Of a stretch of DNA of 64,000 nt, positions 3,465 through 31,806 are shown one piece after another. The notes under the pieces are model-generated. The model had not been told where the DNA came from. It saw only the letters and a program-made list of their open reading frames with translations, and searched no databases. Each line of letters starts with the position of its first letter. Position 1 is the stretch's first letter. Origin of the DNA: a bacterium (lineage in GTDB: Bacteria; Patescibacteriota; Minisyncoccia; Ryanbacterales; GWA2-47-10b); assembly GCA_027624915.1 (NCBI GenBank), contig JAQBTR010000002.1:30802-94801 (forward strand), in the 5' to 3' direction. The position numbers and the translations under genes are program-made.

Positions 3465-4330
3465 TGCTAAGTTTAAAAGAAGTACTAACAAATGCTACTC
3501 GCGAGCGCTGGGCGGTTCCGCATTTTAATTTTGCAAACTCATCAATGCTTGAAGCCCTAGTAGAGGCGGCAGTTGAAGCACGCTCACCACTTCTTGTTGG
3601 AACATCTGAATCAGAAAGAGATTTTATTGGCATTGAACAATGCGTGGCACTCGTAAAGAGTTATAGAGACGAACATGATATGCCAATCTATTTGAATGCA
3701 GATCACACATATTCTGTAGAAAAAGCAAAAGAAGCAATTGATGCAGGCTACGATTCTATCCATATTGATCTATCGAAGGAATCATTTGAAGACAACCTAA
3801 GGGGTACAAAAGAGGTTGTTGAATATGCAAAAAATAAAAACCCTGAGATCTCTGTTGAGGGAGAGATTGGGTATTTGGTAACAGACTCCTCCACTATCTA
3901 CAAAGACGTTATTGATGTTCCTAAGGAGAGTCTTGCAAAGCCCGATGAGGCAAAAAGATTTGTAGATGAGACGGGAGTAAATCGTCTGGCACCAGCAGTG
4001 GGAAGTATCCATGGTATTGCCGCTAACAAGCCACACTTAGATTTTGAGCTTATCTCTACACTACGAGGTTTACTTGGCGATACGGCATTTGTGCTTCATG
4101 GTGGATCTGGCGTAACTCAAGATGAAATGAAGAAAGCGGTACAAAGTGGCATTTCGAACGTTCATATTAGTACAGACCTACGAGTAGCTTTTGTGGATAA
4201 GCTTAGGGAAGAGTTGGAGAAACACAAGGATGAGTACAGGGTGTATAAGCTTTTAAAGCCTGAAATAGAAGAGGTAAAAAAGGTTGCTCTTTACAACATA
4301 GAACTTTTTGGTAGTAGGAATAAACTCTAA
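3464..4330 (+). CDS. fba: class II fructose-bisphosphate aldolase
   Basis: class II FBA motifs (VPHFNF, NADH..., HGGSG). Confidence 0.85.
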   Translation: MLSLKEVLTNATRERWAVPHFNFANSSMLEALVEAAVEARSPLLVGTSESERDFIGIEQCVALVKSYRDEHDMPIYLNADHTYSVEKAKEAIDAGYDSIHIDLSKESFEDNLRGTKEVVEYAKNKNPEISVEGEIGYLVTDSSTIYKDVIDVPKESLAKPDEAKRFVDETGVNRLAPAVGSIHGIAANKPHLDFELISTLRGLLGDTAFVLHGGSGVTQDEMKKAVQSGISNVHISTDLRVAFVDKLREELEKHKDEYRVYKLLKPEIEEVKKVALYNIELFGSRNKL

Positions 4331-4435
4331 ATTACGAAACTCACTTCTACTACGACATTGCTGTCCTGCGAACGACAGTGAGCAGTTGACAGCAAGAAGT
4401 GCTCTTGTGGTGCGAACCCGTTTCGTAATTTAGAG
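4325..4435. promoter_or_regulatory. highly structured intergenic element: 16-bp perfect inverted repeat enclosing nested and mutually exclusive hairpins
   Basis: ctctaaattacgaaac (4325-4340) pairs with gtttcgtaatttagag (4420-4435); inner pairs cacttct/agaagtg and tgctgtc/gacagca; gacag occurs twice, giving alternative pairings. Confidence 0.4.
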
Positions 4436-4459
4436 TAAAAAAGTGTAATATAAAAACAT

Positions 4460-5443
4460 ATGGTTACTAAAATATTTGTTACGCGCAAGATTCCAGACGC
4501 AGGGATAGAAATGCTTAAGGCTCCAGGCTATGAGGTGAAGGTAAGCGATAAGGATGGTGTTTTGACGAAGGATGAATTAATCGCCGAGTTAAAAACAGGA
4601 GAGTATAATGCTGTCCTATGTCTTTTGACTGACAAAATTGATACAGAAGTCTTGGATGCAGCTGGTCCTAAATGTAAGATTTTTGCTAATTATGCAGTTG
4701 GGTATGATAACATTGATGTCGAGGAGGCTCGCAAGCGAGATATTTTTGTATCAAACACACCAGGCGTACTAACTGAAACCGTTGCTGAATATACAATCTC
4801 ACTTATGTTGTCACTTGTGAGACGCATCCCAGAGGCTGATAAATTTGTTCGCGCTGGCGAATATCATGGTTGGGCGCCAATGCTTTTAATGGGGTCTGGA
4901 CTGGCTGGCAAAACATTGGGTGTTGTAGGGTTGGGGCGTATTGGTGCTCGAGTAGCACATCATGCTGTCCGAGGGTTTGATATGAAGGTTATTTACTATG
5001 ATGTAAATAGAAATGCTGATTTTGAAAAAGAATACAATGCAGGATATCGTGCTGATGTAGATCACGTTCTTACAGATGCTGATTTTGTCAGTATTCATGT
5101 GCCACTACTTGATTCCACAAAGCACCTTATTAATGATGCTAGACTTCAGCTTATGAAGAATTCTGCCTATCTGATAAATACATCGCGTGGTCCAGTAGTC
5201 GAGGAGGCGGCACTTGGTCGCGCATTAAAAGCTGGAACGATAAGGGGTGCTGCGATTGATGTATTTGAGTTTGAGCCAAAAATTGACTCCTTACTAACCG
5301 AGTTAGATAACATTGTTTTGACACCGCACATAGCATCTGCCACAGAGGAAACACGTGGCAAGATGTCAGAGCTCGCAGCGCAGAACATATTGGAGGCTTT
5401 GAGTGGGAATATCCCTCCAAACGTCATCCAAGCTCAGGGCTAG
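4460..5443 (+). CDS. D-isomer-specific 2-hydroxyacid dehydrogenase (glyoxylate/hydroxypyruvate reductase-like)
   Basis: NAD-binding GLGRIGARVA motif; overall D-2-hydroxyacid dehydrogenase family similarity. Confidence 0.8.
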   Translation: MVTKIFVTRKIPDAGIEMLKAPGYEVKVSDKDGVLTKDELIAELKTGEYNAVLCLLTDKIDTEVLDAAGPKCKIFANYAVGYDNIDVEEARKRDIFVSNTPGVLTETVAEYTISLMLSLVRRIPEADKFVRAGEYHGWAPMLLMGSGLAGKTLGVVGLGRIGARVAHHAVRGFDMKVIYYDVNRNADFEKEYNAGYRADVDHVLTDADFVSIHVPLLDSTKHLINDARLQLMKNSAYLINTSRGPVVEEAALGRALKAGTIRGAAIDVFEFEPKIDSLLTELDNIVLTPHIASATEETRGKMSELAAQNILEALSGNIPPNVIQAQG

Positions 5444-5467
5444 ATTTTTTGGCCAGTTCTGGTATAC

Positions 5468-6175
5468 TTGGTCATTATGGAACAACTTTTGGCAGAAAAA
5501 AGAGAAGTATTCGGAAAGCAACTTTCGGGGCTCCGCGCCTCTGGGCGTGTTCCTGCTATCGTATATGGAGCAGGCTCTAAAGAGTCACTATCTCTATCAG
5601 TAGTATCAGGAGATTTTGTTCGCCTTTGGAAAAAGGCTGGCGAGTCTACAATCCTTTCTCTATCCATTGATGGCGATGGAAAAAAGAACGTTTTGATTCA
5701 CGATGTGGCAATGGATCCAGTTACTCAAAAGCCACTTCATGTAGATTTCTACGAGGTGTCTAAAGACCACAAGCTTAAGGTTAATGTGCCATTTGTATTT
5801 GATGGTGAGTCGCGTGCGGTAAAAGAGCTTGGAGGTATGCTTGAGAAGGTACTTCACGATGCAGAGGTTGAAGCATTCCCTGACAAGTTACCACATGAAC
5901 TTATTATAGATATTTCTAAAATTGCAACGTTTGATGACCACATTACACTTGGCGATATCAAAATGCCTGAGGGCGCTACTCTTACGGGTGAGCCCGAAAG
6001 TTTGGTTGCAAAAGTTAACCCTCCTCGAACACAAGAAGAGCTTGATGCTGAACTCGCAGAAACTACTGATGCAAGTCTTGATGATATTGAAGTTGAAGAG
6101 AAGGGCAAGCAAGATGATGATGAGTCTGAAGGATCTGATGAGTCCTCTGAGGGTTCAAAAGAAAAGAGTGAATAA
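5468..6175 (+). CDS. rplY: ribosomal protein bL25 (general stress protein Ctc form) with acidic C-terminal tail
   Basis: L25/Ctc N-terminal and beta-barrel region similarity; Asp/Glu-rich tail. Confidence 0.8.
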   Translation: MVIMEQLLAEKREVFGKQLSGLRASGRVPAIVYGAGSKESLSLSVVSGDFVRLWKKAGESTILSLSIDGDGKKNVLIHDVAMDPVTQKPLHVDFYEVSKDHKLKVNVPFVFDGESRAVKELGGMLEKVLHDAEVEAFPDKLPHELIIDISKIATFDDHITLGDIKMPEGATLTGEPESLVAKVNPPRTQEELDAELAETTDASLDDIEVEEKGKQDDDESEGSDESSEGSKEKSE

Positions 6176-7490
6176 AATCCTAGCAGGTGTATTAACCTTG
6201 TTAGGCCCGGTGCTGTTGTTTTCAGCGTTGGTGTTTTTTGCTCACGCACAGTCTCTTTCACAGCAGGTAATTGACCATAGAGCCGAACTTAAGCGACGTC
6301 TTGATGGTATAGAGACGGAGATTGGTGGGTGGCAAAAACTTATTACAGAGAAACAAAACGAAGCTGAAAGTTTTGAACGAGATATAGCAATTTTGGATGC
6401 AAAAATCAGTAAGGCAAAATTACAGATTCGAGCTTTTGATATTGAAGTGGAGCGTCTTCAGGGGAGAATAAACGATAAGGAAGGCACCATTGATGAAATT
6501 TTAGCAAAAGTAGAGAGGGAGAAACTTTCGCTTGCAGAGGCATTGCGTAAGATGTGGGAGTATGACGATACGTCAGTAATTGAAGCGATGTTTGCGCATG
6601 ACTCTATTTCAGATTATTTTGGGGATATTGATACTATCGATGTAGTTCAGCGAAGTCTACAGCAATCATTTGAAGAATTATATTCAACAAAAACCCAGGA
6701 GGAGGTTGCGCGTGACCAATATGTTGGGCAACGTACAGAGGCACAAGAATTAAGGTATGTCCAGGAACTTGAACGTCAAGATTTACAAAAAAATGAAAAC
6801 GAACGACAATCTTTATTGGATGCGACACGAGGCAAAGAGTCAGAATATACAAAGATTAAAAATCGTAGGCAACAAGATGCCGCCGCCATTAGGAGTCAAC
6901 TTTTCTTGTTGCAAGGTTCTCCTGCGATTCCTTTTGAGAGAGCAGTAGCATTGGCTGAAAGAGCATCTCAAAAGACTGGAGTTCGTGTGGCATTTGCCCT
7001 TGGTATAATTGCACAAGAATCAGAACTTGGTAAAAATATAGGACAGTGTAACTTGCCTGAGGACCCACCAAAATATAAGTGGTATAATATCATGAAGCCA
7101 ACCCGGGATAAGGAGCCATATCTAGCTATTACAAGTAGTCTCGGTCTCGATCCAGATCTAATGCCGCTTTCGTGTCCACTGTCTGTTGGTTGGGGAGGTG
7201 CGATGGGTCCTGCGCAATTTATCCCCTCTACTTGGATTTTATATGTCGACCGTATTGGTAGAGCAACAGGTCATGTTCCTCCCAACCCGTGGGAGCCAGA
7301 GGACGCATTTATGGCCTCTTCTCTATTTTTGTCTGACTTGGGCGCTGACAAGCGTGACGGTGAGTTTGAGGCGGCAGCTCGCTACTTTGCCGGAGGAAAC
7401 TGGAATGGGTCTCTTGGAAGGACTTATGCAAATCAAGTACTTTCTAAAGTAGAGACGTATCAGCGTCAAATTGATATAATTTCAAGGTGA
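6168..7490 (+). CDS. membrane-anchored coiled-coil protein with C-terminal MltB-like lytic transglycosylase domain
   Basis: N-terminal TM helix, long coiled-coil region, C-terminal GWGGAMGPAQFIPSTW motif typical of MltB-family lytic transglycosylases; start trimmed to in-frame GTG at 6168 (the track ORF from 5922 overlaps rplY). Confidence 0.6.
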   Translation: MNKILAGVLTLLGPVLLFSALVFFAHAQSLSQQVIDHRAELKRRLDGIETEIGGWQKLITEKQNEAESFERDIAILDAKISKAKLQIRAFDIEVERLQGRINDKEGTIDEILAKVEREKLSLAEALRKMWEYDDTSVIEAMFAHDSISDYFGDIDTIDVVQRSLQQSFEELYSTKTQEEVARDQYVGQRTEAQELRYVQELERQDLQKNENERQSLLDATRGKESEYTKIKNRRQQDAAAIRSQLFLLQGSPAIPFERAVALAERASQKTGVRVAFALGIIAQESELGKNIGQCNLPEDPPKYKWYNIMKPTRDKEPYLAITSSLGLDPDLMPLSCPLSVGWGGAMGPAQFIPSTWILYVDRIGRATGHVPPNPWEPEDAFMASSLFLSDLGADKRDGEFEAAARYFAGGNWNGSLGRTYANQVLSKVETYQRQIDIISR

Positions 7491-7569
7491 AGAGGGTACC
7501 CTGGGGTACAAGGTGAAGAGGGTACCCTGGGGTACAAGGTGAAGAGGGTACCCTGGGGTACAAGGTGAA
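7484..7569. repeat. tandem direct repeat, 26-bp unit x3.3 (aaggtgaagagggtaccctggggtac), each unit with the palindrome GGGTACCC
   Basis: three perfect contiguous copies plus a partial one read directly from the sequence; overlaps the stop codon of the upstream gene. Confidence 0.85.
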
Positions 7570-7603
7570 TTCTGTGAATCAGAATGGGGTATAAGGTAAC
7601 ATT

Positions 7604-7888
7604 ATGACGAAGCATATACATTGGGGAATAGTTCTTGTTTTTATATACTTACTAGCTATAGTTGGTTTGTTTATTTACGCGCTTAGTTGTGATGGATTTT
7701 TGTGTGGTCTGCTTGTTGTGTGGGCGGCGGCTCCATGGTCAATACTAGCTGCCTACACAGAGATAGAAGGGAACGCCCTATCAGGCGCTCTACTCTTTTT
7801 TGGTGGAATTGTTATAAATATTTTTATTCTCTACTTTACAGGTAAGCTGCTTTCTAAAAAAAAAGTTGCTTCCCCTCAAGATGAGTGA
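7604..7888 (+). CDS. hypothetical small membrane protein
   Basis: 94-aa ORF with 3 predicted TM helices. Confidence 0.4.
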   Translation: MTKHIHWGIVLVFIYLLAIVGLFIYALSCDGFLCGLLVVWAAAPWSILAAYTEIEGNALSGALLFFGGIVINIFILYFTGKLLSKKKVASPQDE

Positions 7889-11390: not shown

Positions 11391-11465
11391 GCCAGTATAG
11401 CTCAGTGGTAGAGCAATGCTTTTGTAAAGCATAGGTCGTGGGTTCGAATCCCTCTGCTGGCTCCA
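11391..11465 (+). tRNA. tRNA-Thr (anticodon TGT), CCA encoded
   Basis: cloverleaf folded by hand: acceptor gccagta/tgctggc, anticodon loop tttgtaa, T-loop ttcgaat. Confidence 0.85.
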
Positions 11466-11466
11466 A

Positions 11467-11565
11467 GTTTGAAAAACAATTTCAAGTGAGAGGGATGAGA
11501 ACAGAGTGCTGTTAGCACTCTGCGGGGTTTGTGATAGGCAAACCGAATCCCTCTGCTGGCTCCAA
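11467..11565 (+). repeat. tRNA-downstream structured element ending in a 22-nt copy of the tRNA-Thr 3' end (cgaatccctctgctggctccaa)
   Basis: hairpin agagtgc-tgtta-gcactct, then a hairpin with loop tgatagg, then an exact duplicate of the tRNA 3' end; homologous to the element at 32838-32918. Confidence 0.55.
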
Positions 11566-11606
11566 ATAATAATACGCGGTTTTGTGTCGCGTATTATTAT
11601 TTTTGT
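11566..11606 (+). terminator. rho-independent terminator
   Basis: aataataatacgcg-gttttgtgt-cgcgtattattatt followed by a T-run. Confidence 0.65.
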
Positions 11607-11621
11607 TATACTGAACATAGC

Positions 11622-12893
11622 ATGAAGAAGAACCCGGTTGTTGTTATTTTGGGTGGCGGATACGCAGGGATTCGCGCAGCCTTAGATGTTCTGCGCAAAA
11701 CACGCGCAGATGTTATTTTGGTTGATGAAAAGACGTATCATGCATTACCGACACAGTTTTATGAGTTGGCAAGTGTATACCAAGAAGAGCCCGCACTTGA
11801 AACTCTCGAGCAAAAGAAAAAAAGGTTTCATAATCTTCTTGAGAGTGTTGCAATCCCATTTAAAACAATTTTTGGTGATAGTAATAGAATTGAATTTGTA
11901 CAAGGATCTGTGCGAGTTGTACGCCCCGATGAAAATGGAGTTTTATTGAGAGACGGTCGCAAGATTGATTTTGATTATCTTGTAGTTGCCATCGGTAGCA
12001 GAACAAATTATTTTGATATTCCACATCTTAAAGAAAATTCAATTGGGCTCAAGTCTCCCGAAGAAGCTTTGAATATTAGAAATAGAATAGATGAACTTTT
12101 TCGTAATAGTCCCAAGCATAAAAAAATTACTGTTGTCATTGGTGGGGGTGGTGTAACCGGTTGTGAATTTGCAGGAGAGGCTGTTTCGTATATGAAGAAG
12201 CTTGCCGAGCTACACCAGCATCCGATTGCCAATTGGTGTTGTTTGCTTATTGAGTCTGGAGATTCAATACTTGGTAATGCATCATTGTGGGTGCAAAAAA
12301 AAGCTCGTGCGCGCTTATCAAAACGTGGGGTTACAGTTCTTACAAAAAGTCCAATCAAAGACGTGTGGCCTGGTCTTTTACACCTTGGGGATGAAAAAAA
12401 GGCAGTTCATTTTGATTTGCTTGTCTGGACTGCTGGTGTAAAGGGTAAGTGTGAGGGCGAAATTTTAGAGCATACTAAGTTATCTGCAAAAAGTTGCATC
12501 CCCGTTGGTAAAAATTTATGTATACCCCCATGTGATAATGTTTTTGTTGTGGGGGATGTGGCAGCAACATTTGATCCCAAAACTGGAAAACCAACCCCCA
12601 TGACAGCGCAAAAGGCAGTGCATGATGGCACGTATGCGGCATATGCGATTGCAAGAAGGATTAAAAACAAAAAAGCAAAGCTGAAACCATATGTACATAA
12701 ACGCTCAGACTACATTTTTCCACTCGGAGGTAAATATGCGCTTCTTCAGACACGATGGTTACATGCAAAAGGATTTAAAATATGGCTTCTCAAATACTTT
12801 GTTTTGTTCAGGTATGTTCGCACCATATTGCCAACACATAAAGCCCTTTTATTTGTCATAAAAGGAGTACGTCTCTTTACAAAAAATGACTAA
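11622..12893 (+). CDS. FAD-dependent pyridine nucleotide-disulfide oxidoreductase, type II NADH dehydrogenase (NDH-2)-like
   Basis: two Rossmann GxGxxG motifs (ILGGGYAGI, VIGGGGVTGCEFAG); C-terminal amphipathic/hydrophobic region. Confidence 0.7.
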   Translation: MKKNPVVVILGGGYAGIRAALDVLRKTRADVILVDEKTYHALPTQFYELASVYQEEPALETLEQKKKRFHNLLESVAIPFKTIFGDSNRIEFVQGSVRVVRPDENGVLLRDGRKIDFDYLVVAIGSRTNYFDIPHLKENSIGLKSPEEALNIRNRIDELFRNSPKHKKITVVIGGGGVTGCEFAGEAVSYMKKLAELHQHPIANWCCLLIESGDSILGNASLWVQKKARARLSKRGVTVLTKSPIKDVWPGLLHLGDEKKAVHFDLLVWTAGVKGKCEGEILEHTKLSAKSCIPVGKNLCIPPCDNVFVVGDVAATFDPKTGKPTPMTAQKAVHDGTYAAYAIARRIKNKKAKLKPYVHKRSDYIFPLGGKYALLQTRWLHAKGFKIWLLKYFVLFRYVRTILPTHKALLFVIKGVRLFTKND

Positions 12894-12911
12894 ATGCCCT
12901 AGTATGGGAGC

Positions 12912-13427
12912 ATGTTAAAAATAGGAGAATTAGCCCCAGAGTTTAAGCTCGAGGGCTATCACAATGGGAAATTTAGGGACTACAACCTTAAACAATATAA
13001 GAAGAAGTGGCTTGTCATCTTTTTCTACCCTCTTGATTTTACATTTGTATGCCCAACTGAAATTAAGCAGTTTTCAAAGAAACATGATGAGTTTAAGAAG
13101 TTAAAAGCAGATGTTGTTGGTGTGTCAGTAGACTCGATTCATTCGCACAAGGCATGGGTTGAGGGGTCTTTGGGAAAGCTCAATTTTCCTTTACTTGCTG
13201 ACTTCCACAAGAAGATGGCAAGAGATTATGAAATATTACTTGATGATGAGGGAGTGGCACTTCGCGGTACGTTTATTATCGACCCATATGGAAAACTTCG
13301 TTACATGGTCGTATCTGACAATGATGTTGGACGCTCAGTAGACGAGACAATTCGAGTTCTCTCGGCACTCCAAACTGGAAAGCTTTGTCCAATTGAGTGG
13401 ACACCAGGTAAAAAGACGCTTAATTAA
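12912..13427 (+). CDS. peroxiredoxin (AhpC/TSA family, 2-Cys type)
   Basis: FFYPLDFTFVCPTE peroxidatic Cys motif and C-terminal resolving Cys (GKLCPIEW). Confidence 0.85.
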   Translation: MLKIGELAPEFKLEGYHNGKFRDYNLKQYKKKWLVIFFYPLDFTFVCPTEIKQFSKKHDEFKKLKADVVGVSVDSIHSHKAWVEGSLGKLNFPLLADFHKKMARDYEILLDDEGVALRGTFIIDPYGKLRYMVVSDNDVGRSVDETIRVLSALQTGKLCPIEWTPGKKTLN

Positions 13428-13430
13428 ACC

Positions 13431-13462
13431 TAAAAAACCGTTTAGCTTAGCGGTTTTTTGAC
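13431..13462 (+). terminator. rho-independent terminator
   Basis: aaaaaccg-tttagcttag-cggtttttt hairpin plus T-run. Confidence 0.6.
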
Positions 13463-13589
13463 GGCGACAAGACCTTGACACATATGCATAATATGTGTTA
13501 GGGTTCTTACAGAAATGGCGAGGCATTTGTTTCTCGTTATAAAGATAAGATTCCGTGACCCTACGGGTCCAGCGGAAAGGAGGACCGTA

Positions 13590-14054
13590 ATGAAGTACCT
13601 TCGAATCCCAGCGGCGATCGGGGTCGCAGTTCTGTTCACTGTTTTGGCTCTGGCTACGTCTGCACGCGCGGATGCGGATCAGGCCACGTTCGTGCCGTTC
13701 GAAGACGGCACGGGTGCTGTCGTGACCTCCGAAGGAGTTTACGGGGTCGACAAGAATCGTTCGGTGGATTCTTTCGCCTCGCTCGAAGACTCGTCACAGA
13801 ACGTGGCGATCCCGCGGTGCATGCGGTCGCGCACGGAGGCCGAGGCTGCGTGTCCCCAGTTTTTCACTTACGTGAAGCAGAACTGGTTCTGCTTCTACTG
13901 CGCGCTCTGCCAGATCCGCGCTGACAACGAAATCCTCTGTCGCGAGGAAGCCAAGCCATACATCCGTGCACGTTTCGGCATCCGTTCGTCTGGCGAAAGG
14001 GCATCATCGTCTGGTGCGATTCGCTCGGGAGGTCGGCGTCTCGGCCGGCGGTAG
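13590..14054 (+). CDS. small secreted Cys-containing protein encoded in a GC-rich (about 60% GC) island
   Basis: AAGGAGG RBS 7 nt upstream; signal peptide MKYLRIPAAIGVAVLFTVLALATSARA; GC-rich codon usage unlike the flanking DNA; own GC-rich terminator downstream. Confidence 0.55.
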   Translation: MKYLRIPAAIGVAVLFTVLALATSARADADQATFVPFEDGTGAVVTSEGVYGVDKNRSVDSFASLEDSSQNVAIPRCMRSRTEAEAACPQFFTYVKQNWFCFYCALCQIRADNEILCREEAKPYIRARFGIRSSGERASSSGAIRSGGRRLGRR

Positions 14055-14090
14055 CCAAAGCTTTGAGGGGGGGGCGAACCCCTCCCAGTC

Positions 14091-14130
14091 CAGCCCTGGA
14101 TGCGTGAGCATCCAGGGCTGTTTTCTTTTT
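14091..14130 (+). terminator. GC-rich rho-independent terminator ending the GC-rich island
   Basis: cagccctggatgc-gtga-gcatccagggctg followed by ttttcttttt. Confidence 0.7.
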
Positions 14131-14153
14131 CTATTGACTCAAAGTTTTAAAAC

Positions 14154-14169
14154 ATAGATAATCATCTAT
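14154..14169. promoter_or_regulatory. palindromic candidate operator (atagat-aatc-atctat) abutting the arsR-family start codon
   Basis: perfect 6-4-6 inverted repeat immediately 5' of the ATG at 14170; TTGACT -35-like box at 14133. Confidence 0.35.
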
Positions 14170-14448
14170 ATGTCAGTGAAAGAAAAGAATTGTGTATCGT
14201 GTTTTAAGATCTTGGCAGAACCAACACGTATTTCACTTATCAAATATTTACAATCTGGTTCATATAATGTCACCGAGATAACAAAATATTTGGGTGTAAC
14301 TCAGCCAACCGTTTCTCATCACTTAAAACTTCTTGATAAATTAGGAATGGTTACCAAAGAACCTCGTGGAAGAAAGGTTGTGTATGGTTATAACCAAGAT
14401 TATCCATGTCGTGGATGTGGAGTATTTACGCTTCCAATAAAAACATGA
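14170..14448 (+). CDS. ArsR/SmtB-family transcriptional regulator
   Basis: winged-HTH with typical ArsR region (ITKYLGVTQPTVSHHLKLLDKLGMV). Confidence 0.8.
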   Translation: MSVKEKNCVSCFKILAEPTRISLIKYLQSGSYNVTEITKYLGVTQPTVSHHLKLLDKLGMVTKEPRGRKVVYGYNQDYPCRGCGVFTLPIKT

Positions 14449-15707
14449 GCAAAGAGACTGAAATAAAAAGACGAGTATATTTAGATCATGCGGCAGCCAC
14501 TCCAATGGACTTGCGAGTAAAGGAAGCTATGGATTCATACATGACTGATGAATATGGAAATGCTGGCGGCTTGTATCGCGAGGGGCGTCGAGCAAAAGAC
14601 GGCATTGATCATGCGCGCAAAAGTCTTGCGCGTATTTTGAGTTGTCGTCCTGATGAAGTTGTTTTTACCTCTGGTGGTACCGAAGGAGATGTTCTGGCGA
14701 TTATCGGTACGGCGCGTGCCAATAAAGATCGTGGAAGTCATATAGTAACAACAACAATTGAACACCAAGCCGTCCTTGAATCATGTGAAGCTCTAGAAAA
14801 AGAAGGTTTTGAGGTGACCTATGTTGATGTTGAGCCAAATGGAGTTGTTGACCCTAAAAAGATTGAAAGCGCTTTACGTGATGATACTATTTTAGTTTCT
14901 GTTATGTATGCAAATAATGAAATAGGTACGATTCAACCCATTCGTAATATTGCAAAGATTTTGAAAGACAGAAAAATTATTTTTCATACTGATGCTTGTC
15001 AGGCATCCGAATACTTAGATTTAGACGTACAAAAACTTGGCGTAGATCTTCTTGTTTTGAACGGTTCCAAGGTGTATGGCCCAAAGGGTGTCGGTGCAGT
15101 ATTTGTTCGTAATGGGACTCGCGTGAGACCCATTCTTTTTGGTGGAGCACAAGAAGGTAAGCGGCGAGCGGGAACCGAGAATGTTCCGGGTATCGTGGGT
15201 CTTGGGCGCGCTTTAGAAATTGCCGATGAGATGAAAGTTAGAGAGGGTGCACGCCTCAGTGAACTTCGCGATTATCTGATAAGTAGAATAACGAAAGAGA
15301 TAAAGCGAACCATTTTGAATGGAGACGCAAAAGAGAGGCTTCCTAATAATGTTAATATTTCTATTCTTGATATAGAGGGGGAGGCTACTCTTTTATATCT
15401 TGATAATTACGGGATTGCTTGTTCTACGGGCTCTGCATGCACCTCGGAGAGTCTTGACCCGTCTCACGTGATTTTGGCGCTTGGTAAGCCATATGAGCAT
15501 GCACACGCATCTATTCGATTTACACTTGGGAGAGGTACTAAGAAAGAAGATTTGGATTATTTGATGGAATATCTACCGGGAGTTGTTACAACATTAAGAA
15601 AAATTTCACCAATAACAGTAGAAGAAGATGCAAAGGGTATGTCGCATCCTGAAGCATTTGCTGGAGAAAATATGAGAGTAAAAGCTAATTCTAAAAACTA
15701 TAAATAA
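14445..15707 (+). CDS. cysteine desulfurase (NifS/IscS family, PLP-dependent)
   Basis: class V aminotransferase motifs (FTSGGTE, HTDACQA, SKVYGPKG); start set at ATG 14445 overlapping the arsR stop (ATGA). Confidence 0.85.
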   Translation: MSKETEIKRRVYLDHAAATPMDLRVKEAMDSYMTDEYGNAGGLYREGRRAKDGIDHARKSLARILSCRPDEVVFTSGGTEGDVLAIIGTARANKDRGSHIVTTTIEHQAVLESCEALEKEGFEVTYVDVEPNGVVDPKKIESALRDDTILVSVMYANNEIGTIQPIRNIAKILKDRKIIFHTDACQASEYLDLDVQKLGVDLLVLNGSKVYGPKGVGAVFVRNGTRVRPILFGGAQEGKRRAGTENVPGIVGLGRALEIADEMKVREGARLSELRDYLISRITKEIKRTILNGDAKERLPNNVNISILDIEGEATLLYLDNYGIACSTGSACTSESLDPSHVILALGKPYEHAHASIRFTLGRGTKKEDLDYLMEYLPGVVTTLRKISPITVEEDAKGMSHPEAFAGENMRVKANSKNYK

Positions 15708-15708
15708 T

Positions 15709-16380
15709 ATGTCAGACAAAAAAGATTTAAAAGGAGCAGACATAGATGTCATCAATCAGTATACGGGTGAAAAATGGTATTACACAGATACTGTCAAAGA
15801 ACATTTTTTTAAACCACGCAATCTTTTACTTGATGCACCCGACGAGTCTAATTTTGATGCAAACGGTATGGTTGGTAGTCCAGCATGTGGAGATATGATG
15901 AATATGTGGATGAAGGTTGATCCTAAGACTGAGAAGATAAAAGATCTCAAGTGGAAAACTTTTGGCTGTGGTTCAGCGATTGCTGCAACCAGTATGTATT
16001 CGGTTATGCTCACAGAGGAAGGTGGTATGACCATAGAGAGCGCATTGAAGGTAAAGCCACAGCATATTATGATGAGATTAGGAGGACTCCCAAACCGAAA
16101 GATTCACTGCTCTGTACTTGCTGACAAGGCATTTCAGAAGACAGTAAATGATTACTTTCGAAAGACTGACCAGCACGACCGTATAATTACAGATGGTGCT
16201 CGTGTAGTAGACGAACGATTGAACATTACAGATAAAGATATAGAGGAGGCGGTGTTGGAGGGTGCGCAGACGCTTGAGGAGGTTCAGAAGAAATTAAAAG
16301 TAGGAGTTGGAATGTCGGAAGAGTCGGTTACCGATATCGAACAATTAATTAGATTTTATGCAGAAAAATATTATGGCTGA
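15709..16380 (+). CDS. NifU/IscU-like Fe-S cluster assembly scaffold with C-terminal extension
   Basis: three conserved scaffold Cys (SPACGDMMNMW, FGCGSAIA, HCSVLA). Confidence 0.8.
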   Translation: MSDKKDLKGADIDVINQYTGEKWYYTDTVKEHFFKPRNLLLDAPDESNFDANGMVGSPACGDMMNMWMKVDPKTEKIKDLKWKTFGCGSAIAATSMYSVMLTEEGGMTIESALKVKPQHIMMRLGGLPNRKIHCSVLADKAFQKTVNDYFRKTDQHDRIITDGARVVDERLNITDKDIEEAVLEGAQTLEEVQKKLKVGVGMSEESVTDIEQLIRFYAEKYYG

Positions 16381-16612
16381 AGAACAACAAGGACATAAAA
16401 TTGCTCGTATATATGTAGATAGAGATAAGTGTATTGGCGCTGCTTCATGTGTTGCTATTGCACCTGGCGTGTTTGAGCTTGATGATGAAAATAAGGCGGT
16501 TGTAAAAGATGAACAAGGAGCAGACGATGAAACTATTTTGCTTGCAGCACAATCATGCCCAACTCAAGCAATCGTATTATTCGACTCCGCAGGAAACCAG
16601 ATATTTCCATGA
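16373..16612 (+). CDS. small ferredoxin
   Basis: CIGAASC...CP cysteine pattern of single-cluster ferredoxins; start overlaps the nifU-like stop. Confidence 0.6.
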   Translation: MAEEQQGHKIARIYVDRDKCIGAASCVAIAPGVFELDDENKAVVKDEQGADDETILLAAQSCPTQAIVLFDSAGNQIFP

Positions 16613-29169: not shown

Positions 29170-31806
29170 ATGATGAGCTTAGAGTTATTAAACAAACAGA
29201 GGAGGGCCAGAATGGCTCGCTCAAATAGGAAGACACCAAAACGAAACCCACGCATACCGTGGTCTAGTTTTTCCAAGAAATTTGTAGATCGACTTTGCCG
29301 AATGGCAACCCAGGATGAAATCCTGGATGCTGTCGCGAAAGAATGTGGCACACGTCCCACATGGAACACGACAAGCGCATATTTTTCTCGTTCTGGATTA
29401 AAGCCTAAAGTTTTTGAAGTACTTCATGTTGCTGATCGTCTTGACGGCAAGCAACAAGAGAATTTTAGAAAACTTTGGACAAGTGATGCTTCCATTTCTG
29501 ATGTGGAAGAAGTATTTCCTGGCATAAAGAGAGATGATCTCCGTCGTATTGCTCAAAGGCTTAAAGTAAAGAGGGGTTCTCGTAAGGAGCAGGACACAGC
29601 GTTCGATGAAGTTATTTCACCTTTGTCGCCAGAAGAGGCACTCGCTGAGATGACGTTGCCAGAGCGTGAATGGGACGACCCACTTCAACTAGAGATGATG
29701 CCAGGCGCATGGGCTGATCGTGCCGTTCGAATCGGACTTATGTCCGGTATCGCATATGGCAATGATGGCATGCGTGGTGGTCTCATTAATCTTGCGATGG
29801 AACTTCTTCGTGATGAGGGTATCCGCCTCATCATCAATAATGCACACGTTGTCGATGGTAAGAGTGTTGTCGGTCAAGTGGCCGAACGCACCGTTGAACT
29901 TCGAGAGGAGTCTCGCGGGCGCCGTGCCACAAGGGCTGGTAGAGAAAGATATCCCGCACTTACTCAGGCTTCGCTACGCGATAAGGCTGCAGAAGATGTT
30001 GTGCAGGCAGTAGCCAGAGACCTTTCTTCACTCATACCCCAAATTCTCCGTCCTTTACCGATGCGCGAGAAAGGACGAATTCCATTTGTAAAGATGTATA
30101 CGCTCACGACTCCAGATACCCTATCTCTCTATGATGGAAAGTATGGAGAATCTATTGCGGAAGAATTGCAACATATTCGTGACGACATCATCTTGTATGG
30201 TGCTGGTGGGGACTGGATCTATATCAGAGATTTTGATATCAAGATTGGTATTTTGAATCCCAGCAGATCTCGACTTCCTGGTAAGTACCAGAGTACAGCC
30301 GGTGAAAAAGAGATTGATGAGAAAGAACGCCAGACATCTCAAGACTTCCCAGATCTTTGGATTGTGAATCCGTTTGCAGCAGCTGTATTTCAGCCGGCAG
30401 GCATTCGCGCACGTCCATACATCATGGGACCAGCACTTCGTCGTTTGGAAGAAGTCCACACGGCCGAGAATCAGGCTGGTATCATGATTCTGGAGTATAG
30501 ACCAAATAGACAGAAGATTGTTCGTAACTATTCGTTTAGAGATTTGATTAGAGCTGAGCTTAAGACGATTGTTACTCCGCGTGGCGCAACCAAGACGCAA
30601 AAACGTATTGTTGCGACAATCGGTGAGCACGGCGCTCTTCCTATTGGTACTCTCGAAGACCGTATGCCAGGAGTGAGTCGTGCAACGATTGAACGAGAGA
30701 TTTCTGGTCTTGTAAGCTCTACAGGCAAGCTTTCTACTCGTAAGACATGGCCTGGATTGGTTTTCGATTCGAGGTCAAAGAGATACTACTTCGATGACGA
30801 GTGGATCCAGCGAAAGTTAAGATATCGTTGGCCTAAGGACTTGGTTAGTGACCGTATGCTCTTCTTCGGATGTTTGCATGCTGGGTACACAACGACAGAC
30901 TACGAGCACTTCGTAAAGGAGTACCCTCGTATCATGCTCGAGTATGGTGTTGATCATCTCTTCGGACTTGGCGACATGATCGCTGGTCTAAAGCATGGTC
31001 TTGCATGTTCCGGCGAAGTATTCGGTGGGATGAATTATACCGAGCAAGAGGTTTTTGCCGCAGAACTCGTTGCAACGGTTTTGTTCAAAACCTTCAGGGC
31101 TCGTTTGGAGGTCAAGAGAGGCAAGAAGTCCTTGTCTGACCTTTCTTCCGAAGAGCTGTCGAACCTACTTTCTGATAGCCTCGTTCACTTCCACTATATT
31201 CATGGTAATCATGATTTGTGGCAGGAATATGACGGGCAAATTCCTCTTCAGCAGTTCAACGATGTGTTGGTGAGACTCTTGCATGATGAGACTCTCAAGA
31301 TGTTGATAGAGGAGCGAGCTCCTGCTATCGATCTTTTTGAGATTTTGGCTTCAAAAACTTCTTTCTATTCTGATTTTGCTGGAGTTGCCGAATTGCCGTC
31401 TGGCATCAGGGTGTCAATGCAACATCCTCAGATGGGTCGCGCTCAAACGACAACCTTGCGTGCCCAGCATGCAATGGGAACTCGCGGCGCACAAATCTCA
31501 GCTCTTGCTAACTTCCATGCGTCTGCCACTGTCGCCCAGTGGACTTCTGATCTCGGTCAGTGTGTAGCCATGCAGGCGGGGACGCAGGTCATCTATACGC
31601 GCTTCGAGCGTCGTAAGATGAAAAAAGAAGTTGATTTCGGCCCGCTCTATCTCCATGTCCAGTCCAAGGGTGGACGAATTTATATAGATGAACGAGCGGC
31701 GTTTAATGAAAGTATTTTAAAAGTAGCTCTTAATAAGAAACACGATTCTGAAGGCCTTAAGCGAAAGCTTGGTCTACTCCGACATCCGGATCTTATTGTT
31801 AGGTGA
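29170..31806 (+). CDS. large hypothetical protein (878 aa) with C-terminal calcineurin-like metallophosphoesterase motifs, on a higher-GC island
   Basis: GCLHAG / GDMIAG / IHGNHDLW resemble phosphoesterase motifs I-III (the motif I Asp is replaced by Cys); basic N-terminus; GC about 48-55% against 40% background. Confidence 0.55.
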   Translation: MMSLELLNKQRRARMARSNRKTPKRNPRIPWSSFSKKFVDRLCRMATQDEILDAVAKECGTRPTWNTTSAYFSRSGLKPKVFEVLHVADRLDGKQQENFRKLWTSDASISDVEEVFPGIKRDDLRRIAQRLKVKRGSRKEQDTAFDEVISPLSPEEALAEMTLPEREWDDPLQLEMMPGAWADRAVRIGLMSGIAYGNDGMRGGLINLAMELLRDEGIRLIINNAHVVDGKSVVGQVAERTVELREESRGRRATRAGRERYPALTQASLRDKAAEDVVQAVARDLSSLIPQILRPLPMREKGRIPFVKMYTLTTPDTLSLYDGKYGESIAEELQHIRDDIILYGAGGDWIYIRDFDIKIGILNPSRSRLPGKYQSTAGEKEIDEKERQTSQDFPDLWIVNPFAAAVFQPAGIRARPYIMGPALRRLEEVHTAENQAGIMILEYRPNRQKIVRNYSFRDLIRAELKTIVTPRGATKTQKRIVATIGEHGALPIGTLEDRMPGVSRATIEREISGLVSSTGKLSTRKTWPGLVFDSRSKRYYFDDEWIQRKLRYRWPKDLVSDRMLFFGCLHAGYTTTDYEHFVKEYPRIMLEYGVDHLFGLGDMIAGLKHGLACSGEVFGGMNYTEQEVFAAELVATVLFKTFRARLEVKRGKKSLSDLSSEELSNLLSDSLVHFHYIHGNHDLWQEYDGQIPLQQFNDVLVRLLHDETLKMLIEERAPAIDLFEILASKTSFYSDFAGVAELPSGIRVSMQHPQMGRAQTTTLRAQHAMGTRGAQISALANFHASATVAQWTSDLGQCVAMQAGTQVIYTRFERRKMKKEVDFGPLYLHVQSKGGRIYIDERAAFNESILKVALNKKHDSEGLKRKLGLLRHPDLIVR

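Follow-up and report, generated by a model that had tools for sequence, protein, structure and literature searches.

A GC-rich one-gene unit encoding a predicted secreted six-cysteine protein at an accessory-gene hot spot of Ryanbacteria-like Parcubacteria

The 64,000-nucleotide stretch analysed here (positions 30,802 to 94,801 of contig JAQBTR010000002.1, assembly GCA_027624915.1; hereafter the window) carries a short GC-rich island between a peroxiredoxin gene (prx) and the arsR gene of an arsR-nifS-nifU operon, and within this island lies a single gene, here called X1. The reading we favour, to which a probability of roughly 0.55 is attached, is that X1 is a complete one-gene unit in a hot spot between prx and arsR, that a single import from a GC-rich source probably brought it in before the lineages represented by the window and by two orthologous loci, L004 and L006, split from one another, and that it has been inherited since, its GC content being kept by more than passive inheritance. 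An earlier note on this DNA had regarded the island as the hallmark of recent horizontal acquisition. That dating is contradicted by the homologous X1 cassettes found at the equal site in a contig from Hainich groundwater (L004) and in two JGI metagenome contigs (L005 and L006), with flanks near saturation at four-fold degenerate sites. As X1 is shared by lineages near synonymous saturation, its GC-richness is no mark of recency; nor is the gene limited to one strain or species, as recent acquisition would lead one to expect. The relatives of the peroxiredoxin are labelled Candidatus Ryanbacteria, Patescibacteria group and Niyogibacteria, and on account of these labels the host can be assigned to the Parcubacteria, within the Candidate Phyla Radiation (CPR), in keeping with the reduced-genome bacterium already suspected.

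The island between prx and arsR

The 570 bp from 13551 to 14120 have a GC content of 61.2%, against a mean fraction of 0.415 (standard deviation 0.028, maximum 0.518) for the remaining 570-bp segments of the window. With z = 7.2 this is the sole region of such GC in the 64 kb, and the GC-rich island that had been claimed is real. The X1 open reading frame (ORF) has GC fractions of 0.59, 0.53 and 0.69 at first, second and third codon positions (GC1, GC2 and GC3), compared with a median GC3 of 0.34 for the ORFs of the window, and the ratio of arginine to lysine in its product is inverted, at 11% Arg and 2.6% Lys vs 5.4% and 7.1% in the other long ORFs. Deviating base composition and codon usage of the kind sought in a horizontally acquired islet are therefore present. 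The shift does not occur straight after the prx terminator, where it had been placed, since about 90 bp of AT-rich promoter and 5' untranslated region (5'UTR) separate that terminator from the rise in GC, but composition, as had been said, and amino-acid usage are clearly foreign-like. The elements of the unit and its borders are as follows.

13432-13459, plus strand: intrinsic terminator of prx, inverted repeat AAAAAACCGTTTAG/CTTAGCGGTTTTTT; it bounds the X1 unit on the left in this genome
13475-13504, plus strand: predicted X1 promoter, with -35 TTGACA at 13475-13480, an 18-nt spacer ending TGt (extended -10) and -10 TAGGGT at 13499-13504
13479-13497, no strand: 19-bp palindrome CACATATGCATAATATGTG (CACATAT-GCATA-ATATGTG), within the X1 promoter spacer
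13551-13577, plus strand: predicted 5'UTR stem-loop, outer helix UUCCG/CGGAA and inner hairpin GACCC-UAC-GGGUC, directly before the ribosome-binding site (RBS)
13577-13583, plus strand: Shine-Dalgarno sequence AAGGAGG, 6 nt before the X1 ATG
13590-14054, plus strand: X1 coding sequence, ATG at 13590, stop TAG at 14052-14054, 154 aa, 6 Cys
14067-14086, plus strand: first 3' hairpin, GGGGGGGG-CGAA-CCCCTCCC, including a run of eight G (G8) at 14067-14074
14091-14130, plus strand: X1 intrinsic terminator, 13-bp perfect stem at 14091-14120 with a 4-nt loop, then the T-run TTTTCTTTTT
14134-14169, plus strand: arsR promoter and putative operator, native and outside the islet, TTGACT-N17-GATAAT, with the palindrome ATAGATAATCATCTAT at 14154-14169; right border common to every variant of the locus

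A composition shift as abrupt as this one, in a metagenome-assembled genome, might be produced by a fragment of a GC-rich organism misjoined into a CPR contig. The likelihood of this is close to nil. The ENA scaffold L001 (90 kb) contains an identical island, and in the independent Logan assembly of SRR2027830 two contigs cover positions 11403-14074 and 14067-16438 of the window, each passing from native AT-rich DNA through one GC junction into the island; the sole break between them is the G8 homopolymer inside the island, where both contig ends run into spurious poly-G. Orthologous islands are moreover found at the equal site in unrelated samples, namely Hainich groundwater and two JGI metagenomes. 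Chimerism and contamination, which the earlier note had named as a way in which its claim could fail, were rejected on the strength of these independent assemblies and orthologous islands.

X1 is a real protein-coding gene under purifying selection. This follows from the codon-position order GC3 > GC1 > GC2, from ratios of nonsynonymous to synonymous substitution rates (dN/dS) of 0.22-0.41 against its two orthologues, from the fact that every indel is in frame, and from the lack of a match in Rfam, either at gathering thresholds or at E <= 5. RNA genes are often conspicuous as GC-rich segments of AT-rich genomes, and a GC-rich island with stable terminal hairpins could on that analogy represent a structured non-coding RNA in which the ORF is accidental. 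We consider this very improbable: besides the negative Rfam search, the codon-position periodicity of GC, the strong RBS, dN/dS below 0.5, the in-frame indels and the invariant cysteines all point to translation, and the synonymous sites of X1 vary freely, conservation tracking the reading frame. The non-coding RNA was accordingly rejected, on the Rfam result, the coding periodicity and dN/dS.

Family distribution and the prx-arsR hot spot

The X1 family consists of three members among approximately 15 billion proteins, all of them in Ryanbacteria-like Parcubacteria. A HMMER search over 1.84 billion cluster representatives returned only the query and P0002 (E = 3e-27, 50% identity), P0003 was the one addition from a profile search of 5.8 billion clusters, and a scan of JGI metagenome contigs recovered only L005 and L006, the two contigs that encode P0003. 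No match was found in viral contigs, plasmids, PDB sequences, Pfam, NCBIfam, PHROGs or PADLOC, and the best matches in curated families were at the level of noise (DUF116, E = 0.1; fusD, E = 0.09; 2yjj, E = 0.23). Best hits in high-GC taxa had been expected; the best, and only, matches are the CPR copies.

All three members lie directly downstream of an orthologous peroxiredoxin gene, whose product is 79-80% identical to that of the window. In L006 the synteny is complete (pyr_redox, prx, X1, X2, arsR, nifS, nifU and the superoxide dismutase gene), and in L004, from the 0.1-um fraction of Hainich groundwater, prx, X1 and X2 are followed by a transposase. Homology among the X1 units of the window, L004 and L006 extends over their whole length, taking in promoter, leader stem-loop, Shine-Dalgarno sequence and terminator. 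The additional gene X2 (1263-1742 in L004, 9023-9502 in L006), which is absent from the window, encodes a 159-aa secreted or lipoprotein-like protein with four conserved cysteines, has a GC3 of 0.74-0.84, and possesses its own promoter, leader hairpin and terminator. The transposase of L004 (1903-2760) is a transposase/integrase-like ORF, identified by reading its sequence, which is of native GC and stands where other lineages have arsR; the contig ends inside it.

The neighbourhoods of prx in ten further relatives, in which the peroxiredoxin is 73-84% identical to that of the window, display a variety of states at this position.

L014 and L015: empty site, with prx and arsR about 100 bp apart
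L019: 425-bp spacer without genes between prx and arsR
L012, L013 and L018: small minus-strand genes of native GC in the prx-arsR gap
L007: 395-aa secreted HExxH protein, 53% GC
L008 (Candidatus Ryanbacteria RIFCSPLOWO2_12_FULL_47_9c), 4569-5495, right after prx: secreted DUF7450-repeat protein, 60% GC, GC3 0.77, Pfam E = 1.8e-23
L017 (Candidatus Ryanbacteria GCA_016181705.1): HAD and PaaX-like genes of native GC, then a gene for a 218-aa non-secreted protein at 3835-4491, 66% GC, GC3 0.89
L016: differing synteny downstream of prx
L020: contig end about 200 bp past prx

Because this position is empty in some relatives and in others holds genes of native GC or unrelated GC-rich genes, the gap between prx and arsR is an accessory-gene hot spot, repeatedly occupied by single-gene, self-sufficient and often GC-rich units. 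The distribution of X1 is thus patchy, as that of a horizontally acquired islet should be, and its description as accessory DNA holds good, there being relatives in which the site is empty or differently filled. It had also been reasoned that the case for transfer would fall were the segment universal in relatives with native codon usage; it is indeed present in some relatives, but its codon usage is always non-native and GC-rich. Islands of horizontal gene transfer are reported to be common in groundwater Patescibacteria (PMC12455944).

Each inserted unit closes with a terminator placed immediately against the conserved arsR promoter and its operator palindrome; in the window the X1 terminator finishes 4 nt before the arsR -35 box. 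The palindrome, ATAGAyAnynrTCTAT, overlaps the -10 box and the arsR start codon, is kept in L006, L007, L012, L013, L017 and L019, and is probably the autoregulatory operator of a putative ArsR-controlled arsR-nifS-nifU operon. The contigs of several relatives (L004, L008, L018 and L020) stop just past prx, as is expected where strains differ. In L017 the gene for the 218-aa protein lies directly upstream of the arsR promoter and has homologues, 29-30% identical and some of them annotated as helicase, on Bradyrhizobium and Bacillus mycoides plasmids; it appears to have entered the same hot spot more recently.

Age of the unit and persistence of GC

A tree of four flanking genes (1080 columns) places both the window and L006 outside a well-supported group of X1-less relatives, and prx alone groups L004 with L006, matching the branching order of X1. 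The flanking proteins of the window and L006 are 50-85% identical, and at 395 four-fold degenerate sites in these flanks the identity is 0.33, vs 0.25 expected from composition. The equivalent figures for the four-fold sites of X1 are 0.41-0.47 vs 0.27-0.32 expected (n of approximately 40-54). The divergence of X1 is hence similar to that of its neighbours, as expected if the gene was already present in a common ancestor and has passed down vertically since.

Over this divergence X1 has retained a GC3 of 0.68-0.82, with neighbouring genes at 0.23-0.56. The GC-versus-AT state of flank four-fold sites is barely correlated between the window and L006 (r = 0.12, 95% confidence interval 0.03-0.22; GC 0.30 and 0.52, respectively); the four-fold sites of X1 are equally randomised (r = 0.02-0.23) and yet are 62-78% GC, and those of X2 are 79-85% GC. 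If an ancestor of 100% GC is assumed, the memory needed along the two branches is at least 0.60 and 0.52, and multiplied together these give 0.31, above the 0.22 at which the confidence interval ends. On these numbers an old import left to decay passively does not account for the data. Either the GC-richness of X1 is actively maintained or diverged copies have been imported repeatedly, and three sequences do not decide between the two. Counts at third positions (38 GC-to-AT changes vs 13 AT-to-GC) were considered as a sign of ongoing amelioration, and this use of them was withdrawn; the excess is uninformative either way because parsimony at saturated sites of about 75% GC yields a ratio of 3:1 by itself.

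The failure of passive decay is one of a number of points that weigh against a single old import into a hot spot. The databases searched contain no donor or relative of X1 outside the CPR copies, and the foreign origin suggested here is argued from composition and patchy distribution alone. No repeats beyond chance-length matches border the unit, it includes no integrase, recombinase or other mobility gene in the window, and no tRNA adjoins the island, the nearest (11391-11462) being two genes away; thus neither the donor lineage nor the mobility signature looked for in a horizontally acquired islet was found. The agreement between trees has little power with three taxa, being one of only three topologies. 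As to the predicted fate of the protein, export, cleavage and disulfides are read off the sequence, and AlphaFold2 models built from the three-sequence alignment are poor, with a predicted local distance difference test score (pLDDT) of 46 for the full protein and 51.5 for the mature core.

An unsampled GC-rich pool, such as a host bacterium, plasmid or phage, might instead have delivered X1 alleles that had already diverged, separately and fairly recently, into the prx-arsR gap of each lineage. Divergence within GC-rich genomes would explain why the four-fold sites of X1 are randomised yet GC-rich, and the locus does take up unrelated GC-rich genes (in L008, L017 and L007), that of L017, at GC3 0.89, having homologues on Bradyrhizobium and Bacillus plasmids; in L004 a transposase adjoins the island. 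We nevertheless think this unlikely, as no X1 relative was found outside these CPR loci among the approximately 15 billion proteins, three lineages share one insertion point and have homologous promoters, 5'UTR stem-loops and terminators, the divergence of X1 follows that of the flanking genes, and a repeat scan with inspection of the borders identified no integrase, att-like repeat or attC site.

Less likely still is that X1 is native: a lineage-specific gene that was never foreign, or was so too anciently to matter, whose GC content is due to selection on mRNA or DNA composition or to GC-biased gene conversion where recombination is frequent, as in a hot spot. The size of the effect is an obstacle, since X1 stands 25-45 GC3 points above its neighbours, which to our knowledge far exceeds the effects reported for GC-biased gene conversion in bacteria, and the adjacent prx and arsR have no similar enrichment. 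Furthermore, the Arg-rich, Lys-poor usage resembles the heritage of a GC-rich genome, and the unrelated GC-rich genes that other lineages have at the equal site resemble imports of the ordinary sort. What a native origin would account for is the persistence of GC-richness through near-saturated divergence while single four-fold sites turn over, together with the confinement of the family to this clade; and the locus, found in many states and often the place, just after prx, where relatives' contigs break, is recombinationally active.

The single old import remains our preferred history, and one further reading of the locus can be offered tentatively, as a proposal that is more doubtful than not. 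The accessory genes at the prx-arsR locus, most of which encode secreted proteins, might have a GC3 of 0.7-0.85 that is actively maintained, in genomes with a GC3 of 0.3-0.5, past the randomisation of synonymous sites. This would be a locus-specific compositional equilibrium, not the fading signature of a transfer. It could arise if strong GC-biased gene conversion acted at a recombination hot spot, or if the composition of these particular genes were itself under selection.

The X1 product

The earlier note correctly recognised one cysteine-containing protein, predicted to be secreted, but its length is 154 residues, not 155, and the cysteines number six where about eight had been counted. 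The gene callers of the ENA and Logan assemblies chose an upstream ATG at 13515, giving 179 aa; the orthologues and the position of the RBS support the 154-aa start, with methionine at 13590, as the probable one. The product has been deposited at NCBI as a hypothetical protein, in which the following parts can be distinguished.

About residues 1-27/29: predicted signal peptide, MKYLR followed by a 17-residue hydrophobic stretch, IPAAIGVAVLFTVLALA, then TSARA/DA (ARA/ADA); by inspection
About residues 30-73: variable acidic region, beta-strand prediction of low confidence
Residues 74-117: six-Cys core, IPxCxRxRxEAEAxCPQFFTYVxQNWxCFYCxLCxxR...LC, invariant
C-terminal tail: basic, rich in Gly/Ser/Arg, ending RRL

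With a positive n-region, a hydrophobic h-region and a small-x-small motif, the N-terminus has the properties of a Sec (type I) signal peptide for which cleavage is predicted. The clear signal peptide with an AxA site that had been reported was seen again by inspection, and the pattern is kept in both orthologues (..SVSAQA/DP in P0002, ..GIGRA/EE in P0003). The X1 product is very probably secreted. Among the three orthologues none of the six cysteines varies, nor does the block CPQFFTYVxQNWxCFYCxLC, and X1 may be described as a new orphan family of six-cysteine proteins, predicted to be secreted and confined to one CPR clade.

On this basis a sequence of events can be proposed. X1 would be transcribed from its own sigma-70-type extended -10 promoter, with the 19-bp palindrome that fills the spacer as a possible operator, and the leader stem-loop that ends at the Shine-Dalgarno sequence may stabilise the mRNA or tune its translation. 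The Sec signal peptide would then direct export, with cleavage after A27 or A29, and outside the cytoplasm the six-Cys core would most likely form three disulfides, although this is an assumption, the C-x2-C-x2-C spacing also resembling metal or Fe-S ligand motifs, which makes metal binding possible. The basic Gly/Ser/Arg tail could keep the protein on a negatively charged surface, either the cell's own envelope or that of a partner cell. Downstream, the X1 terminator would shield the arsR-nifS-nifU operon from read-through. Any function more specific than 'extracellular' would be a guess.

Non-coding elements of the unit

The predicted X1 promoter is matched upstream of X1 in L004 and L006 by the layout TTGACA-N18(..GTGTGn)TAGnnT; a consensus promoter scan chose another, weaker pair, GCGACA/CATAAT. 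The prx terminator that forms the left edge of the unit in the window is missing from the corresponding place in L004 and L006. The 19-bp palindrome reported earlier is real, but lies 2 nt from the position given for it (13477-13495), and might be an operator. No other good copy of it is present within the 64-kb window, it is not kept in L004, and its place in L006 is taken by another inverted repeat, TATCAC-N5-GTGATA; a role as a repeated operator was ruled out by the lack of further copies in the window and of conservation in L004.

A two-tier leader hairpin is predicted in 3/3 orthologous UTRs, with an inner helix that varies (GACCC/GGGUC, AGCC/GGCU and GGCU/GGCC). This is suggestive of a conserved leader structure, the fold z-scores being only -1.8 to -2.7 over three sequences. 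The sequence GGAAAGGAGGAC is invariant across the three orthologous loci. Both the consensus AAGGAGG RBS and the strong GC-rich terminator with which the earlier note had credited the island gene are confirmed, the whole 3' region of X1 folding with z = -5.2 and the terminator core, GATGCG...CGCATC, being homologous in L004 and L006.

Comparison with known systems

Horizontally acquired DNA of many bacteria is known to include genomic islets in hot spots between core genes, and the X1 unit behaves like such an islet, an element of a known kind. It shares with them its atypical base and amino-acid usage, its patchy presence with an empty site in some relatives, its form as a single self-sufficient gene, and the varied cargo found at one fixed position between prx and arsR. 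It departs from them in lacking an integrase, flanking repeats, a border tRNA and an identifiable donor, and in being common to lineages near synonymous saturation without having drifted to the composition of its host.

Integron gene cassettes, whose small ORFs often encode orphan and often secreted proteins and have odd GC, resemble X1 in being small, single-ORF units with a hairpin at the 3' end, and in L004 and L006 X1 and X2 follow one another head to tail. Unlike cassettes, each of these units has its own promoter, and the 3' hairpin of X1 is a terminator with a perfect stem and a T-run, not an imperfect attC. No GTTRRRY/RYYYAAC core site was seen in 14055-14135 by inspection, no dedicated attC model having been applied, and there is no integrase nearby. 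An integron cassette or attC was accordingly rejected, by inspection, on account of the promoter, the terminator in place of attC and the lack of core sites.

The DUF7450 (Pfam PF24247) protein of L008 is like X1 in its position downstream of prx, in being GC-rich (GC3 0.77), in being secreted and in containing cysteines. A weak alignment to one DUF7450 repeat was obtained for X2 of L004 and L006 (hhalign E = 0.0097), whereas X1, which has no Pfam match, gives E = 0.33 against the L008 protein and E = 0.098 against X2, and its kinship to either was rejected on these values. The C-terminus of the L008 protein (CGDG...EQCD) is also like the myxobacterial cysteine-rich repeat (TIGR02232, E = 0.04); the stop of this ORF is at the extreme end of the contig, its downstream context lying beyond. 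At the level of a general class, X1 resembles small secreted disulfide-rich bacterial proteins in its predicted Sec signal peptide, its small size and the six invariant cysteines in a core of approximately 40 residues, and differs from them in matching no described family in Pfam, NCBIfam or PDB.

Implications

X1 provides a worked example of a sharp GC island that need not mean recent transfer. CPR organisms are thought to live attached to other cells, and X1 and its companion X2, both found in one CPR clade only, are candidates for a role in cell-surface or partner-cell interaction. The segment from the prx stop codon to the arsR operator is a compact and easily recognised hot spot, with which gene flow into CPR genomes could be tracked across metagenomes. 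The odd property that remains is the persistence of GC-richness through saturating divergence, which merits a larger sample; should active maintenance prove to be its cause, this would rank as an unusually strong bacterial case of local compositional selection or biased gene conversion.

Other observations

The small minus-strand genes in two of the X1-less relatives (L012 5409-5627 and L013 2328-2603) encode products of 72 and 91 aa with a common motif, EKLAEDLGL and EELARDLGL respectively, and have no Pfam match. In L019 a gene at 7470-7826, between the ferredoxin and superoxide dismutase genes, has bAvd and 23S_rRNA_IVP domains, the accessory-protein type of diversity-generating retroelements. 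Elsewhere in the window, a perfect 26-bp tandem repeat, CAAGGTGAAGAGGGTACCCTGGGGTA, is present in 3.3 copies at 7483-7569, overlapping the 3' end of a 522-aa ORF, which ends at 7490, and extending beyond it. The ENA scaffold L001, from the same population, is about 50 bp, or approximately two repeat units, longer than the window over this array, such that either the copy number or the resolution of the repeat differs between the two.

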